Positions 45,492-56,769 of a stretch of 64,000 bases of DNA are shown here, in pieces. Origin of the DNA: Dehalococcoidia bacterium. Its GTDB lineage: Bacteria > Chloroflexota > Dehalococcoidia > Lucifugimonadales > UBA1127. The stretch is from the NCBI GenBank assembly GCA_965116355.1, contig OZ220679.1, forward strand, positions 94,669-158,668. Direction: 5' to 3'. Within the stretch, counting starts at the first letter, position 1; every line of letters begins with the position of its first letter. Made by a program: the position numbers and the translations under genes. The notes under the pieces were generated by a model that saw only the letters and a program-made list of their open reading frames with translations, made no database searches and was not told the origin of the DNA.

Positions 45492-46295
45492 CTATGCGCG
45501 CCGCGCCCTTCCAATGAGCGCCAGGAACGCCATCGTCATGCTCACACTGCCGACCAGCGCAATGGCGCCGAACCCGAGGAGGATGTCGGTCCACACCCAG
45601 CCCTCGGTGACCAGGGAGCGCAGACCATCGAGAAGGTAGGTGACGGGATTGTAGGTTGCGATGGCCTGCAGCCAGCCGGTCATCGCCTCCAACGGCACAA
45701 AGATGGTTGTCAGGAATATGAACGGGAAGAAGAGCAGGAAGCTCACGTTGACGGCCGCGGGGTTGCCCGTCTTGAGGGCAATTGCGTACGGGAACCCCGT
45801 GAAGGCCAGTCCCCAGGCGCCGGCCATAGCCATGAACAGGAGGATGCCAAGGATGCCGCTTTCAAAGCGCACGCCGACGGCGTATCCGAGGATGAGCACC
45901 GGGATAGTCAGGGCGACCACCAGCGCGATGTCAGCCACCATGAGGCCCAGCAACAGCGAAAACCGGCTAACCGGCGTCAACGCGAGCCGGTCAAAGTAGC
46001 CGGTCTGGATGTCCGTCACGAGGGTGATGGCGCGGGAAATGCCGGTGACGGCGAAGATGATGGCAACGGGAAGCTGGAATGCCTTGAAGTCAAGCCCGGG
46101 TATCTCCTCCGCAAGGTCCTGCAGCGCGCCGATGTTCACGGCGAAGAAGAAAATGGGGATGACCAGCGCCGGGTAGACGGCCTCGGGGTCGCGAGGGACA
46201 GAGCGCAGCGCGCGGCCGGCGACGGACATAACGTCGCGGTGGAAGCCGGCGTGCCGGGCACGGACCTCGGTTGGGGCTGGTGCGCTAGTCGCCAT
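45492..46295 (-). CDS. ABC-2 type transporter permease (DrrB-like)
   Basis: 267 aa with 6 hydrophobic segments. 11-nt overlap with the upstream ATPase gene. Confidence 0.8.
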   Translation of the reverse strand: MATSAPAPTEVRARHAGFHRDVMSVAGRALRSVPRDPEAVYPALVIPIFFFAVNIGALQDLAEEIPGLDFKAFQLPVAIIFAVTGISRAITLVTDIQTGYFDRLALTPVSRFSLLLGLMVADIALVVALTIPVLILGYAVGVRFESGILGILLFMAMAGAWGLAFTGFPYAIALKTGNPAAVNVSFLLFFPFIFLTTIFVPLEAMTGWLQAIATYNPVTYLLDGLRSLVTEGWVWTDILLGFGAIALVGSVSMTMAFLALIGRARRA

Positions 46296-47256
46296 CTGCT
46301 TGCTCCTCCGTGCCTACCTCTTCAAAGCGCTCGCCCGTGACGCTGAGGAAGACGTCGTCAAGGGTCGGCGTGTGCATGCGTATCTCGCGCAGCTCAACGC
46401 CGTTCCGGTTCAAGGCCAGCGCGACGGGGCCGATCTGCGCGGAGCCGTTCGTGACACGCACGACGACCTCATTGCCGTAGACGTCCACCTGCTCGATGGA
46501 CGGCAGCGCGCCGACGGCGAGCCGGGCCTCCTCGGCGTCGCCGTCCACCTGCGCGATGATCACATCGGCGCCCATCGAGCGCTTGAGCTCGGCGGGCGTG
46601 CCCTCGGCGGCGAGGACGCCCTGGTTGATGATGCCGACGCGGTCGGCGAGCTGGTCGGCTTCCTCCAGGTACTGCGTCGTCAGGAAGATGGTGACGCCCA
46701 GCTCCTTGTTGACGCGGCGGACCTCCTCCCACACGCGGGAGCGGCTGATCGGGTCGAGGCCGGTCGTTGGCTCGTCGAGGAAGAGGACCTCGGGGTTGTG
46801 GATGAGCGCAGCGGCGAGGTCCAAGCGGCGCTTCATTCCGCCGGAGTAAGTGCTGATAAAGCGCGACATGGCATCGCCGATGTCCACCAGCGAGGCCAGC
46901 TCGTCGACGCGGCGGCGGACCTGGCGCCCCGTCAGGCCGTACAGGAAGCCCTGCAGGCGAAGGAACTCGATGCCCGTCTGCTTTGGGTCGAGGGCGGTGT
47001 CCTGGAGGGCGGCACCGATGCGCAGGCGAATCTCCTTCGCGTCGGACACGAGCTCACGGCCGACGACCCACGCCTGGCCGGCAGTCGGCAGCAGCAGCGT
47101 GATGAGCATGCGCACGAGCGTCGTCTTGCCGGCGCCGTTGGGGCCGAGAAAGCCGTAAATCTCACCCTTGCCGATGTCGAGGTCGACGCCGTTGACGGCC
47201 TTGACCTCGCCAAAAGAGCGAGAGATTCCGGACGCATAGATAGCCCAATCGTTCAA
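46285..47256 (-). CDS. ABC transporter ATP-binding protein (DrrA-like)
   Basis: [12 protein letters not shown] (Walker A), YSGGMKRRL (signature) and [11 protein letters not shown] (Walker B). The start is uncertain: I chose TTG 47256, and the track ORF starts at 47331. Confidence 0.85.
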
Positions 47257-47380: not shown

Positions 47381-47779
47381 CTACCGGTAGGTCAGCAGCT
47401 CCTCCAGCCGGGCTACGAAACGGGCCACGTGTGCGAGCGAGTCACGGACGTAGGGGCGCTCGAGCCAGCTCTCATAGAAGTTGGTGTGGAGGCTGCTTGC
47501 CAACTGGAATTGCATCCGCGCTTCGGGGGCCTTGAGCTCGTCAACCAGGCGGTTGACCACGCGGAACAGGTCTCGAACGCTCTCGTGTTGCCAGCCGCGC
47601 TCTTCGGCGACCGCCTTCACGATGGTGACTGCCGCGCCCCAGCCGTGGCCGGAGGCCTCTCCCAGTTCACCTCTATCGAACTCTTCCGCGGCTGCGGCCA
47701 GGTACTTTCGGCTCTGGTCGAGATAGATGGTCTGCGCCGACATGACGTAGCCGTCCCTGGTCAAGTATCTGCTCTCCAT
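47381..47779 (-). CDS. PaREP1/PaREP8-like four-helix protein (copy 1)
   Basis: ..GELGEASGHGWGAAVTIVKAVAEERGW.H.S.RDLF..V..L......LHTNFYESWL. The family call is from memory of the Pfam PaREP1 pattern. GAGGAG lies 9 nt upstream of ATG 47779. An alternative start is at 47743. Confidence 0.55.
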   Translation of the reverse strand: MESRYLTRDGYVMSAQTIYLDQSRKYLAAAAEEFDRGELGEASGHGWGAAVTIVKAVAEERGWQHESVRDLFRVVNRLVDELKAPEARMQFQLASSLHTNFYESWLERPYVRDSLAHVARFVARLEELLTYR

Positions 47780-47928
47780 ATCCGGTGGCTCCTCAATGGG
47801 AGTCCAGCATTCACGTATTCAATATAGCGCAAATCACGGGCGTGGGAAAGGGAGCAGGCCCAAATCTGCGGCGATTGGCGGGGGAATTGGTGGGCGCGGG
47901 GTTGTCGACGGCGGGAGCGGGGACGCGG

Positions 47929-48291
47929 CTACTGCGATTGCAACAGTCCTTCCACACGATTGACCAACTCCGTCACCTGACCCAGCGACCGCTCAACGGC
48001 GTCGCGCTCCAACCAGCCCTCGTAGAAGTTCCTGTGGAGCCCGCTGGCGGTCTGAAAGAGCATGGGCAAGTCCATGTCGCCGGTCTCCGCCGCAAGCTGG
48101 TTGACGGCGAGGAACAAGTCCCGGTGGGCATCGTGCGTCAGGTCACGCTCATCCGCAGCGGCCTTGACCATTTCCGCCACAGCTCCCCAACCCTTCTCGG
48201 AGGCTTGGCACAGGTCGCCCCTGGCAAGCTCCTCACCGGCTTGGGTGAGGTAGGTCCGGCTTTGACTACGATAGAAGGACCGGGTTGTCAT
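47929..48291 (-). CDS. PaREP1/PaREP8-like four-helix protein (copy 2)
   Basis: MTTRSFYRSQSRTYLTQAGEELARGDLCQASEKGWGAVAEMVKAAADERDL.H..HRDLF....LHRNFYEGWL. Confidence 0.55.
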   Translation of the reverse strand: MTTRSFYRSQSRTYLTQAGEELARGDLCQASEKGWGAVAEMVKAAADERDLTHDAHRDLFLAVNQLAAETGDMDLPMLFQTASGLHRNFYEGWLERDAVERSLGQVTELVNRVEGLLQSQ

Positions 48292-48395
48292 CGGGCGTGG
48301 CTCCGTTAAGACTTGGACAACGCAAGTCCATTCTAGCAAACGTACCGACGTGCCGCCAATGAAGGCGGCATCTTTCGACCGCTACGCGTTTTCAG

Positions 48396-49712
48396 TCAGG
48401 ACGTCGTGTTCTCTATGCCGGGGTGGACGACGAAGGCCTTGCGCAGCTCCTCCGTGGCCTCCAGCCAGTCGGCGTCGCGGGGCAGGATGACGCCGCCGGA
48501 GCGCACCTGGTAGAGCTCGGGGTTGTCGACGGCGGGAGCGGGGACGCCCTCCTGCAGGGAGCGGGCGGCGTTGATGAGCCGCTGGCGCGTCTTGATGATC
48601 ATGCCGTCGCTGGTGCCGAGCCGCTCGCGGGTGCGGTCGACGATGGGGTCCATACTCTCAGTGATGGCCTGGTCCTGCATGTGGATGCCGGCGATGCCCG
48701 TGAAGCTCTTGTTGCGCTGGGCATCGCGGTCGATGTAGTAGTCGTTGGCCTTGTTGGCCTCGAAGCGGTGGCGCTCCAGCCAGCCGGTGCCGTCGGGGAG
48801 CTTGCCTCGCGCGCCGCCGAGGCCCACGAGCGGGTTGCCGTTGACGTCCCTGCGGGCCATGGAGCTGTTGGTGTTGCGGATGGACATGCTGGTGAACATC
48901 GTGTGGTTGTCGTCGACGGGCACCCAGCAGCGCACGCCGATCTTCTCGCCGAGGCGGCCCTCCGGCGGGATGGTGTAGAAGGGCATCATGAACTGGGCGA
49001 TGCGCCAGTAGTAGGTGTCGTCCTCCGCCGGGCGGTAGGCGCCGTACATGGTGCCGTAGTCCGTCTCGACGATCTTGTAGTGGGGCGCCTTCTCGCGCTG
49101 GTTGTAGTAATCGAAGGTGCCGGGCAGGACGTCGTCCGCGGCCACCTTCCCGAGGTGCAGGAAGGTCAGGTGGGCGGTGTCGATGTCGCCCTCCATCGCC
49201 TGCACCCAGTTGCACTCGCGGAGGCCGGCGGAGTTGGAGTCGACGCTCTCCTCCATCATGTTGGGCTCGATGTCCGGCAGCGGCGGCAGGACCTCGCGCG
49301 GGCCCATGTAGGCCCAGATCATGCCGTTGCGCTCGGCCATCCTGTAAGCCTTGATCTTGACCTTGTCCTTGAAGTTGGACTCGGCGGGCTCCGAGGGCAT
49401 GTCGACGCAATCGCCGTTCACGTCGAACTTCCAGCCGTGATAGACACAGCGGATGCCGCACTCCTCGTTTCGGCCGAAGAAGAGGCTCGCGCGGCGGTGG
49501 GGGCAGTAGTTGTCGATGAGGCCGAGCTCGCCGTTGGTGTCACGGAAGGCGATGAGGTCCTCGCCCAGCAGGCGCAGGCGGACGGGGTCGCTGTCGGGCC
49601 CGGGCAGCTCGGTGGAGAGCAGCGCGGGGATCCAGTACTCGCGCAGAAGGTCGCCCATCGGCGTGCCGGGGCCGACGCGCGTGAGGGTCTCGTTGTCGTG
49701 CTGTGAGAGCAT
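48396..49712 (-). CDS. Rieske [2Fe-2S] non-heme-iron oxygenase, alpha-subunit type (paralogue 2)
   Basis: CPHRRASL..CVYHGWKF. The N-terminus MLSQHDNETLTRVGPGTPMG parallels paralogue 1. Confidence 0.9.
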   Translation of the reverse strand: MLSQHDNETLTRVGPGTPMGDLLREYWIPALLSTELPGPDSDPVRLRLLGEDLIAFRDTNGELGLIDNYCPHRRASLFFGRNEECGIRCVYHGWKFDVNGDCVDMPSEPAESNFKDKVKIKAYRMAERNGMIWAYMGPREVLPPLPDIEPNMMEESVDSNSAGLRECNWVQAMEGDIDTAHLTFLHLGKVAADDVLPGTFDYYNQREKAPHYKIVETDYGTMYGAYRPAEDDTYYWRIAQFMMPFYTIPPEGRLGEKIGVRCWVPVDDNHTMFTSMSIRNTNSSMARRDVNGNPLVGLGGARGKLPDGTGWLERHRFEANKANDYYIDRDAQRNKSFTGIAGIHMQDQAITESMDPIVDRTRERLGTSDGMIIKTRQRLINAARSLQEGVPAPAVDNPELYQVRSGGVILPRDADWLEATEELRKAFVVHPGIENTTS

Positions 49713-55878: not shown

Positions 55879-56238
55879 TTAACCCCGCGCCAGCAGTTCT
55901 TCCAACTTCTCCACGAAGCGTGAAATGTCCTGCAAATGGGAAGCTATATCCCACGATGCAAGCTGCCCCTCATAAAAGTTTGTATGCAACTCCCCTGCCA
56001 CCTGAAAGAGTTCCAAGTATTCGGCAACACCCTCTTCCGACACCAGCCGCCGAATCGAATCATAAAGCTGGTTGTGACGACTGTGGCTCCATCCCCTGGC
56101 GTCTGCCACTGCCTTCAATATCTGTGACGCCGCCCCCCATCCCTTTTCCGACGCTTGTCGAAGGTCATTGCGGGAAAGCTCCTCAAAAGCCTGGTCAAGG
56201 AAAACGCGGCTTTGCAACCGGTATTCGGCCTGGGTCAT
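55879..56238 (-). CDS. PaREP1/PaREP8-like four-helix protein (copy 3)
   Basis: MTQAEYRLQSRVFLDQAFEELSRNDLRQASEKGWGAASQILKAVADARGWSHSRHNQLY....LHTNFYEGQL. Confidence 0.55.
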   Translation of the reverse strand: MTQAEYRLQSRVFLDQAFEELSRNDLRQASEKGWGAASQILKAVADARGWSHSRHNQLYDSIRRLVSEEGVAEYLELFQVAGELHTNFYEGQLASWDIASHLQDISRFVEKLEELLARG

Positions 56239-56241
56239 AGC

Positions 56242-56670
56242 TCATGCTTGCCCAGAATACGGCTGATCAGGTTCTTCCCGGACAGAGTGCGGGAGCACCG
56301 GCCCCCCCACCGCCAACATCCGGTCCAGCGTGGCCATGAACTCGTTTACCCTTTTCAGGCTGTGCTCAACGTCCATGTCCGCGTACATGCCATCAAACGG
56401 GGCGGTGCGCAGGTGCCCGGCGGCAGCGAACAACTTGTGCAAGTCTCGCTCCGAGGACTCGCGCGTCAGCCTGCTTACCAAGTTGTACGTCGCCCACGGC
56501 TCCGCAGCGTCCGCCGGCGTCCAGCCCCAGGCATGGGCGATGGCATGCACTTTGTGCGACGCGGCTTCCCACCCCTTGTCCGCAGCGGCCTGCAACTCGC
56601 CGGCTGCAAGGGCGGACTTGGCCTCCGCGAGGCGGGTACGGCTGAGTTCGTCATGTGGTGTGTGGGACAC
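56242..56670 (-). CDS. Divergent PaREP1-like protein (copy 4), 3 nt upstream of copy 3
   Basis: A GTG start at 56670 has AAGGAG 6 nt upstream. MSHTPHDELSRTRLAEAKSALAAGELQAAADKGWEAASHKVHAIAHAWGW aligns position for position with copy 3 up to KGW. It lacks the LHxNFYE motif (it has HLRTAPFDGMY). Confidence 0.5.
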   Translation of the reverse strand: MSHTPHDELSRTRLAEAKSALAAGELQAAADKGWEAASHKVHAIAHAWGWTPADAAEPWATYNLVSRLTRESSERDLHKLFAAAGHLRTAPFDGMYADMDVEHSLKRVNEFMATLDRMLAVGGPVLPHSVREEPDQPYSGQA

Positions 56671-56769
56671 GGTGCGCTCCTTCAACTTCGAGCGGCTAGG
56701 GGTAGGGGATATCGTTGCCGAGCACTTTCGAGTATAGGGCGGGACGGGGGTGGCGGCAACGGACGAACT

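Follow-up and report, generated by a model that had tools for sequence, protein, structure and literature searches.

The DNA analyzed here is a window of 64 kb (64,000 nucleotides) of contig OZ220679.1, which belongs to a member of the Dehalococcoidia with a one-contig genome of 2.59 Mb and 66.6% G+C. Coordinates refer to this window unless a genome position is given. The locus under study (47381–48291) carries two adjacent genes of the PaREP1 family, p1B and p1A, together termed pair 1. The original prediction had seen in them one of two pairs of PaREP1-like paralogs in the window and had proposed a mobile two-component module, possibly a non-canonical toxin-antitoxin (TA) or defense pair. 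Our analysis supports the family assignment and points to two independent paralogs at a variable chromosomal site instead of a module. The two genes and the conserved genes on either side of them are:

47929–48291, minus strand: p1B, 120-amino-acid PaREP1-family protein with predicted HEPN fold and complete signature

47381–47743, minus strand: p1A, 120-amino-acid PaREP1-family protein (open reading frame (ORF) listed as 47381–47779, 132 amino acids)

48396–49712, minus strand: Rieske-type oxygenase gene, conserved, bordering the variable site on the left, 85–93% amino acid identity across the genus

46285–47238, minus strand: ABC-transporter ATPase gene, conserved, bordering the variable site on the right, 73–91% amino acid identity across the genus

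Both PaREP1 genes are minus-strand ORFs, p1B being the upstream and p1A the downstream gene. Their products share 50% identity across 117 amino acids (BLASTP, E=2e-36), which agrees with the predicted pair of co-directional paralogs. The p1B gene starts with ATG and has GGAG 8 nt upstream; the ribosome-binding context GGAGCCAC is common to p1A and p1B. For p1A two start codons were considered, ATG 47779 and ATG 47743. The latter is most likely the real start, because all six orthologs in the genus are exactly 120 amino acids long and because the nearest relative (G003) has no in-frame upstream ATG. In G003 a difference of 1 nt shifts this ATG out of frame. The spacer between p1B and p1A amounts to 185 nt with the favored start and to 149 nt with the alternative one. 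For the orthologs of the two border genes in a close relative (L111) the Pfam families Rieske/LigXa_C and ABC_tran, respectively, are recorded.

The membership in the PaREP1 family was confirmed by a profile hidden Markov model (HMM) search. With the Pfam model PF05942, which has a gathering cut-off of 24.4 bits, p1A scored 59.4 bits and p1B 75.4 bits, and all 72 of 72 database homologs carried the same family. The sole solved structure matched by sequence using phmmer was 2jpu/2q00, a PaREP1-family protein from Sulfolobus solfataricus. An AlphaFold2 model of p1B calculated from a 28-sequence alignment showed five helices (pLDDT 96.2, pTM 0.90). A Foldseek search with this model ranked 2q00_A first (TM-score 0.81, root mean square deviation 1.9 Å, 28% identity), followed by AF0298 (2hsb, TM-score 0.88), ST0689 (1wol), TT1696 (1ufb) and TM0613 (1o3u). 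Further HEPN matches were the HEPN domain of sacsin (3o10) and HepT of MntA-HepT (7bxo/6m6u). The suspected relation to HEPN-type helical bundles was thus borne out at the level of predicted structure. At 50% identity, p1A should share the fold predicted for p1B. A direct sequence link to canonical HEPN proteins was rejected: with the HEPN model PF05168, p1A reached only 16.4 bits and stayed below the cut-off of 22, and hhalign gave no significant similarity between the family profile and the HEPN protein encoded in this genome. The connection between PaREP1 and HEPN is supported by the fold, by the Pfam clan assignment and by earlier published work.

PaREP1/8 proteins have been described as archaeal, nearly exclusive to thermophiles and expanded in Crenarchaeota (PMC3710099, PMC3632139, PMC2701414). 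In the HEPN-T(Parep1/8) branch the H of the HEPN motif is kept and the R is lost, and the genes occur in tandem repeats (PMC3710099). They are found without linkage to MNT genes (PMC3632139), and HEPN domains generally function as dimers (PMC3710099). A literature search retrieved no experimental study of PaREP1/8. Compared with the archaeal proteins (2q00/2jpu), the genes described here are alike in their size of about 120 amino acids, the helical HEPN fold and the retained His of the L-H element. They are also alike in lacking an Arg 4–6 residues ahead of this His, in their multi-copy and often tandem occurrence and in having no MNT partner. The host, however, is bacterial (Dehalococcoidia, with relatives in Acidimicrobiia) and not a thermophilic crenarchaeon. 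In addition, the bacterial subfamily possesses a loop motif, R-G-W-x-H-x-x-H, which is missing from 2q00, and no ribbon-helix-helix fusion was present.

A family signature of eleven residues was derived from 126 bacterial members (numbering of p1B). The conserved positions are Q29-A-S-E-K-G-W-G-A-A38, K43, E69 and L85-H-x-N-F-Y-E91; the motifs quoted in the original prediction (ASEKGWGA and LH.NFYE.W) are present and correspond to this signature. The loop motif R49-G-W-x-H53-x-x-H56 is well conserved (R49 in 118, H53 in 122 and H56 in 117 of the 126 sequences). H86 is kept in 117 of 126, including both p1A and p1B. The signature is complete in p1B (S31, E32, K33, W35, R49, H53, H56, H86, N88, Y90 and E91). 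In p1A three positions are substituted (E32G, K33H and H56V) and LHTNFYESW is retained; the p1A orthologs of G001, G005 and G009 still have QASEKGW. The catalytic HEPN motif Rx4-6H, which normally opens the last core helix, was not found at its usual position, as no Arg lies 4–6 residues before H86. The spacing R49-x6-H56 is located in the loop between helices 2 and 3, another position of the fold than that of Rx4-6H, and H56 is the residue replaced by Val in p1A.

In the genus the gene order around the locus is glyoxalase, Rieske oxygenase, a variable slot and ABC ATPase. The slot was occupied as follows:

G006 and G010: empty

G001, G004, G005, G008 and G009 (congeners): p1A ortholog alone

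G012: p1A remnant of 26 amino acids

L116 (metagenome contig): p1B type alone, 83% amino acid identity

L111 (close relative): degraded third copy, X, and p1B ortholog (91%)

This genome: p1B and p1A

G003 (nearest relative): p1A (96.7% amino acid identity), with unrelated DNA on its left

The p1A orthologs at the site (G001, G003, G004, G005, G008 and G009) showed 70–97% amino acid identity. In G004 and G008 the site holds nothing but an ortholog with the p1A substitutions, and the short contig of G003, with the same variant, showed no second copy. All 12 representative genomes of the genus lacked an ortholog of p1B (best match 56%), and the same pair of p1B and p1A occurred in no relative examined. 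In a phylogenetic tree of the 126 members p1A and p1B fell into different supported clades (0.998; 0.93/0.89). Their last common node spans 25 of the 126 sequences and many genomes. The separate clades together with the occupancy of the site therefore argue for a juxtaposition of two old lineages. Pair 1 itself appears to have come together recently and by chance and is no fixed system of two parts. On the left side of p1A, G003 (L112 = G003:C109, 247–2069) carries a response-regulator gene and a gene for a Gly/Ser-rich lipoprotein. Neither was found in this genome; therefore, the same site was rearranged in G003, too.

The joint between the p1B and p1A segments is marked by a direct repeat, and both genes are preceded by a promoter-like site:

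48515–48547: direct repeat copy 1, within the 3′ portion of the Rieske coding sequence, encodes VPAPAVDNPE

47894–47926: direct repeat copy 2, begins at the p1B stop codon, at the p1B/p1A segment joint

48330–48359, minus strand: promoter-like site of p1B, TTGGCG-18-TAGAAT with TG extension, consensus match

47821–47848, minus strand: promoter-like site of p1A, TTCCCA-16-TATATT, consensus match

The two copies of the 33-nt repeat are identical at 32 of 33 positions (about 45 of 49 when extended). Copy 1 is conserved in relatives as part of the Rieske gene, and copy 2 was absent from every relative examined. The homology to G003 begins exactly after copy 2, which places the synteny break there. 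A duplicated 3′ end of the Rieske gene was ruled out as the origin of the repeat, because the similarity to this gene ends after about 48 nt. Copy 2 is probably a short templated filler, with its source 621 bp away, at a joint formed by illegitimate recombination. No inverted repeats of at least 14 nt (attC-like) were detected between 47200 and 48800, the flanks of the seven copies in the genome had no element in common, and Rfam yielded no matching family. An integron cassette with attC site or terminal repeats was rejected on the first two of these grounds.

The promoter-like site of p1B ends 39 nt ahead of the p1B start, and the −10 element of p1A is conserved as TATAGT in G003. Two sigma-70-like sites were observed in the region, compared to 0.3 expected from shuffled sequences. 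The other copies in the genome likewise have A+T-rich −10-like hexamers 30–45 nt upstream. Judged from these separate sites, p1A and p1B look independently transcribed.

In total, this genome contains seven PaREP1 copies, namely two pairs, two single copies (genome positions 1244507 and 2177369) and one frameshifted copy (C1:1837031–1837390, minus strand) outside the window. The second pair completes the four members that had been predicted for the window:

56242–56685, minus strand: p2B, diverged PaREP1-like gene, upstream member of pair 2, with a 3-nt gap to p2A

55879–56238, minus strand: p2A, canonical PaREP1 gene, downstream member of pair 2

With 22.5 bits p2B remains under the PF05942 cut-off; it still aligns with the family and has lost most signature residues. 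Only p1B and p2A retain all eleven signature residues in this genome. The signature is heavily degraded in p2B, in the single copy at 2177369 and in X of L111. The frameshifted copy was observed to have the full signature, interrupted by a frameshift just ahead of ASEKGW; it reflects either pseudogenization or a mistake in the assembly. Elsewhere in the genus pair 2 was seen only in G003 (L113, 1917–2717), in the same place beside argC. Between the two genomes argC is 98% identical, whereas p2A shows just 60% and p2B 73% identity, which indicates very rapid change or replacement.

The claim that the genes always occur in pairs was not upheld. Three of the seven genome copies are unpaired. Among 80 related loci, the array to which the matched gene belongs was a single copy in 51, a pair in 18, a triple in eight and a quadruple in three, all arrays being co-directional. 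Most array neighbors were mutual closest relatives with 64–95% identity, which bears the signature of local tandem duplication. Likewise, the neighborhood analysis gave no fixed pair and no recurrent neighbor. An all-against-all clustering of every ORF of at least 70 amino acids in the 80 loci recovered just PaREP1 and its antisense shadow frame as recurrent, and a conserved partner gene from another family was thereby ruled out. The nearest called neighbors are diverse, mostly metabolic genes in mixed orientation. A relaxed HMM search likewise left most canonical copies in the relatives without a detectable partner. Two PaREP1 domains in one chain were found in 18 of the best 150 family representatives. 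About 14 of these 18 look like genuine in-frame fusions (P0073–P0077, P0099, P0101, P0143, P0147, P0181, P0202, P0211, P0212 and P0216); in several of them the N-terminal half is degraded and the C-terminal half canonical. The AlphaFold2 model of P0077 showed two packed five-helix domains (pLDDT 89.5, pTM 0.73).

Known defense and TA systems were searched as well. The PADLOC-DB 2.0 models gave matches at chance level only (E 0.0024 or worse), and PHROGs and NCBIfam gave nothing significant. There was no MNT gene near the PaREP1 copies; PF01909 matched at no more than two genome positions, 1829648 and 1552636. A single canonical MNT-HEPN pair exists in the genome (C1:1829648–1830305), and its position is unrelated to that of any PaREP1 copy. 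The proteins resemble MNT-HEPN systems (HepT-MntA; PF05168, DUF86) in their fold and as small stand-alone, probably dimeric proteins. In contrast to these systems, they have no adjacent nucleotidyltransferase and no Rx4-6H at the canonical position, and the PF05168 score, obtained for p1A only, lies below the cut-off. Unlike a type II TA module, the genes form no conserved two-gene unit across genomes, and pair 1 has a long spacer with separate promoter-like sites; in pair 2 the gap is 3 nt. The many diverged paralogs, the patchiness, the rapid turnover and the tandem arrays formed by local duplication are shared with expansions of HEPN proteins in genetic conflicts (Swt1-type in Daphnia, PaREP1/8 in Caenorhabditis; PMC3710099), with the difference that the copies described here are prokaryotic, chromosomal and scattered among metabolic genes.

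Pairwise ratios of nonsynonymous to synonymous substitutions (dN/dS) were 0.04–0.17 for the p1A orthologs and 0.11 for p1B versus its L111 ortholog, and no indels were found. These values indicate functional genes under purifying selection. At the same time p1A evolves faster than the flanking genes: its orthologs have 70–78% amino acid identity, compared to 87–90% for the ABC ATPase, 85–91% for the Rieske oxygenase and 94–99% for the glyoxalase. The low G+C content that had been noticed was confirmed in part. Third codon positions of pair 1 are clearly poorer in G+C (GC3 0.79–0.82) than those of the flanking genes (0.90–0.96), but the total G+C content of 62–63% is only modestly below that of the genome (16th–21st percentile of 360-bp windows). 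For p2A the G+C content is 54%. Overall, the GC3 values of the PaREP1 genes were 0.61–0.82, which corresponds to the 0.5th–21st percentile of long ORFs.

The distribution of the family is patchy. It is present in eight of 12 congeners with 3–12 copies each. Other genera of the taxonomic family have mostly none (one single match), and some genomes of the order contain 18–24 copies. In a sample of the Chloroflexota 21 of 401 genomes and nine of 216 genera carried the family, with 1–11 copies per genome. The closest loci are labeled almost all as metagenome-assembled genomes (MAGs) of "Dehalococcoidia bacterium"; the others belong to SAR202, Tepidiformaceae, Acidimicrobiia and Candidatus Spongiisocius/Spongiisociaceae (Actinomycetota). 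Several of these MAG bins presumably come from sponge metagenomes, and the name of Ca. Spongiisocius, one of the actinomycetotal hosts, suggests an association with sponges. Copies from Dehalococcoidia are up to 73–74% identical to copies from Ca. Spongiisocius and Acidimicrobiia (L020/L021 and L035/L043), which is as close as orthologs within the genus. This suggests recent horizontal transfer between phyla. Patchiness, low GC3, fast change and cross-phylum identity fit accessory, horizontally moving genes. The mobile character proposed in the original prediction is consistent with these data and with the presence or absence of the genes at one site.

Taken together, the best explanation of pair 1 is that two independent PaREP1 paralogs lie side by side at a variable site and do not constitute a module. 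We assign this reading a probability of roughly 0.75. Two parts of it, the PaREP1/HEPN classification and the rejection of a module, are held with high confidence. The data themselves show the family membership and the fold, the action of purifying selection, the turnover of the slot, the lack of a conserved partner and the independent promoter-like sites; the dimer, its ligand and the conflict role described below are inferred. According to this reading, p1B and p1A are diverged paralogs of the PaREP1/PaREP8 branch of HEPN proteins, each apparently transcribed by itself. Their family of five-helix proteins of about 120 amino acids shows a patchy expansion to multiple copies in Dehalococcoidia and certain other bacterial groups. 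The slot between the Rieske and ABC genes varies in content among relatives, which carry p1A, p1B, another combination or no copy there. Here, illegitimate recombination, marked by the 33-nt repeat filler, would have set a p1B type beside a resident p1A type. Each gene would encode a small cytoplasmic HEPN-fold protein that most likely acts as a dimer, as is usual for HEPN domains. The cleft of this dimer would be lined by conserved polar residues from three elements: S-E-K in helix 2, the loop R-G-W-x-H-x-x-H and, in helix 4, H-x-N-F-Y-E. It might bind, and perhaps cleave, RNA or a nucleotide. The genes would persist as dispensable elements that are exchanged horizontally and duplicate locally, and they would probably take part in genetic conflict. 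The accessory, fast-evolving and mobile behavior of the genes would speak for a conflict role (defense or selfish persistence) rather than for housekeeping; the RNA-targeting conflict role as a whole is a tentative suggestion.

Several observations weigh against this reading or parts of it. Ribonuclease activity appears not assured, since the canonical Rx4-6H is missing at its usual place. The lack of any PADLOC, NCBIfam or PHROGs match and the mostly metabolic neighbors, which form no defense island, do not favor a role in defense. Furthermore, p1A lies directly upstream of the ABC ATPase gene in seven genomes, and from this adjacency there is a small chance that the two are functionally tied. 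Finally, p1B and p2A, the sole full-signature copies, each adjoin an incomplete copy, and natural fusions of two domains exist.

These last observations are the basis of the rival that survives best, in which intact and signature-degraded neighbors form heterodimers, the intact subunit being controlled or given a new target by its degraded partner; pair 1 would fit this model loosely. It is strengthened by the degenerate X next to the p1B ortholog in L111, by those of the 18 two-domain representatives that combine a degenerate N-half with a canonical C-half, including the modeled P0077, and by the generally dimeric nature of HEPN domains, which makes heterodimers of paralogs plausible. Nevertheless, we regard heterodimers as unlikely, as most canonical copies in relatives are partnerless even with the relaxed search, and p1A with its substitutions has no second copy beside it in G004, G008 and, on its short contig, G003. 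The separate promoter-like sites and the recent, accidental-looking joint point in the same direction. The broader proposal that PaREP1 arrays are self-contained HEPN modules, in which an intact and a degraded subunit, adjacent or fused, form an asymmetric dimer, is likewise doubtful. If it were true, the degraded half would be a built-in regulator, a "pseudo-antitoxin" or specificity subunit. Turnover and recombination at fixed spots such as the slot between the Rieske and ABC genes would reshuffle partners, and the near-identical copies of co-resident Chloroflexota and Actinomycetota would reflect exchange within one microbiome.

Far less can be said for the two-component module of the original prediction, taken as an obligate partnership (a TA pair of non-canonical type or a defense pair) that moves as a unit. 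The adjacent, co-directional genes, the presence of two such pairs in one window and a GC3 below that of the flanking genes are compatible with it, and HEPN domains do act as toxins in MNT-HEPN systems (PMC2701414). However, both members are found singly at this site in relatives, with no conserved partner, the majority of the 80 related loci hold a single copy and arrays reach three to four copies. Single occurrence lacking a conserved partner is what the original prediction had itself named as a refutation, and by this standard the two-component interpretation is refuted. In addition, p1A and p1B come from separate clades, their combination recurs in no relative, and a spacer of at least 149 nt with separate promoter-like sites lies between them. 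A module is therefore highly improbable.

An in-situ tandem duplication followed by divergence has an equally slim chance. Neighbors in the majority of related arrays are indeed mutual closest relatives, and GGAGCCAC precedes both genes of pair 1. But p1A and p1B are only 50% identical, have closer relatives in other genomes than in each other and fall into different supported clades, and haplotypes with p1A only or p1B only exist at the same site. The repeat is nearly perfect and hence recent, whereas the divergence of the proteins is old. That the genes are decaying or spurious ORFs without function, as the frameshifted genomic copy and the remnant in G012 might suggest, is hardly credible in view of the low dN/dS, the absence of indels, orthologs of exactly 120 amino acids throughout, the kept signature motifs and the confident fold prediction.

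The preferred reading of two independent paralogs makes the genes an ordinary example of the habit of their family (multi-copy, tandem and partnerless) with an under-described bacterial host range, and no new kind of system. One peptide pattern gave more than 588 confirmed loci in a collection of species-representative genomes. When 1.84 billion representative proteins were searched with a profile, 2,510 clusters matched at E≤1e-3, and 1,335 did so at E≤1e-10. The locus adds to this evidence of a large mesophilic bacterial PaREP1 expansion (>588 loci; about 2,500 clusters at 50% identity). To our knowledge, few large HEPN branches other than PaREP1/8 lack an assigned partner, activity and phenotype. 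Close relatives show six or more occupancy states of the slot between the Rieske and ABC genes; this natural experiment allows gain, loss and replacement to be read directly, and it supplies well-defined intact and degraded variants.

A second family of small helical proteins (D-A-A-E-K-A-W-C-A; L-H-G-[DE]-C-F-Y) was observed next to canonical PaREP1 genes in four related loci and may be another PaREP-type subfamily. Its members are located at:

L010: 5341–5721 and 5922–6296

L015: 3141–3964

L016: 3157–3961

L019: 4584–4964

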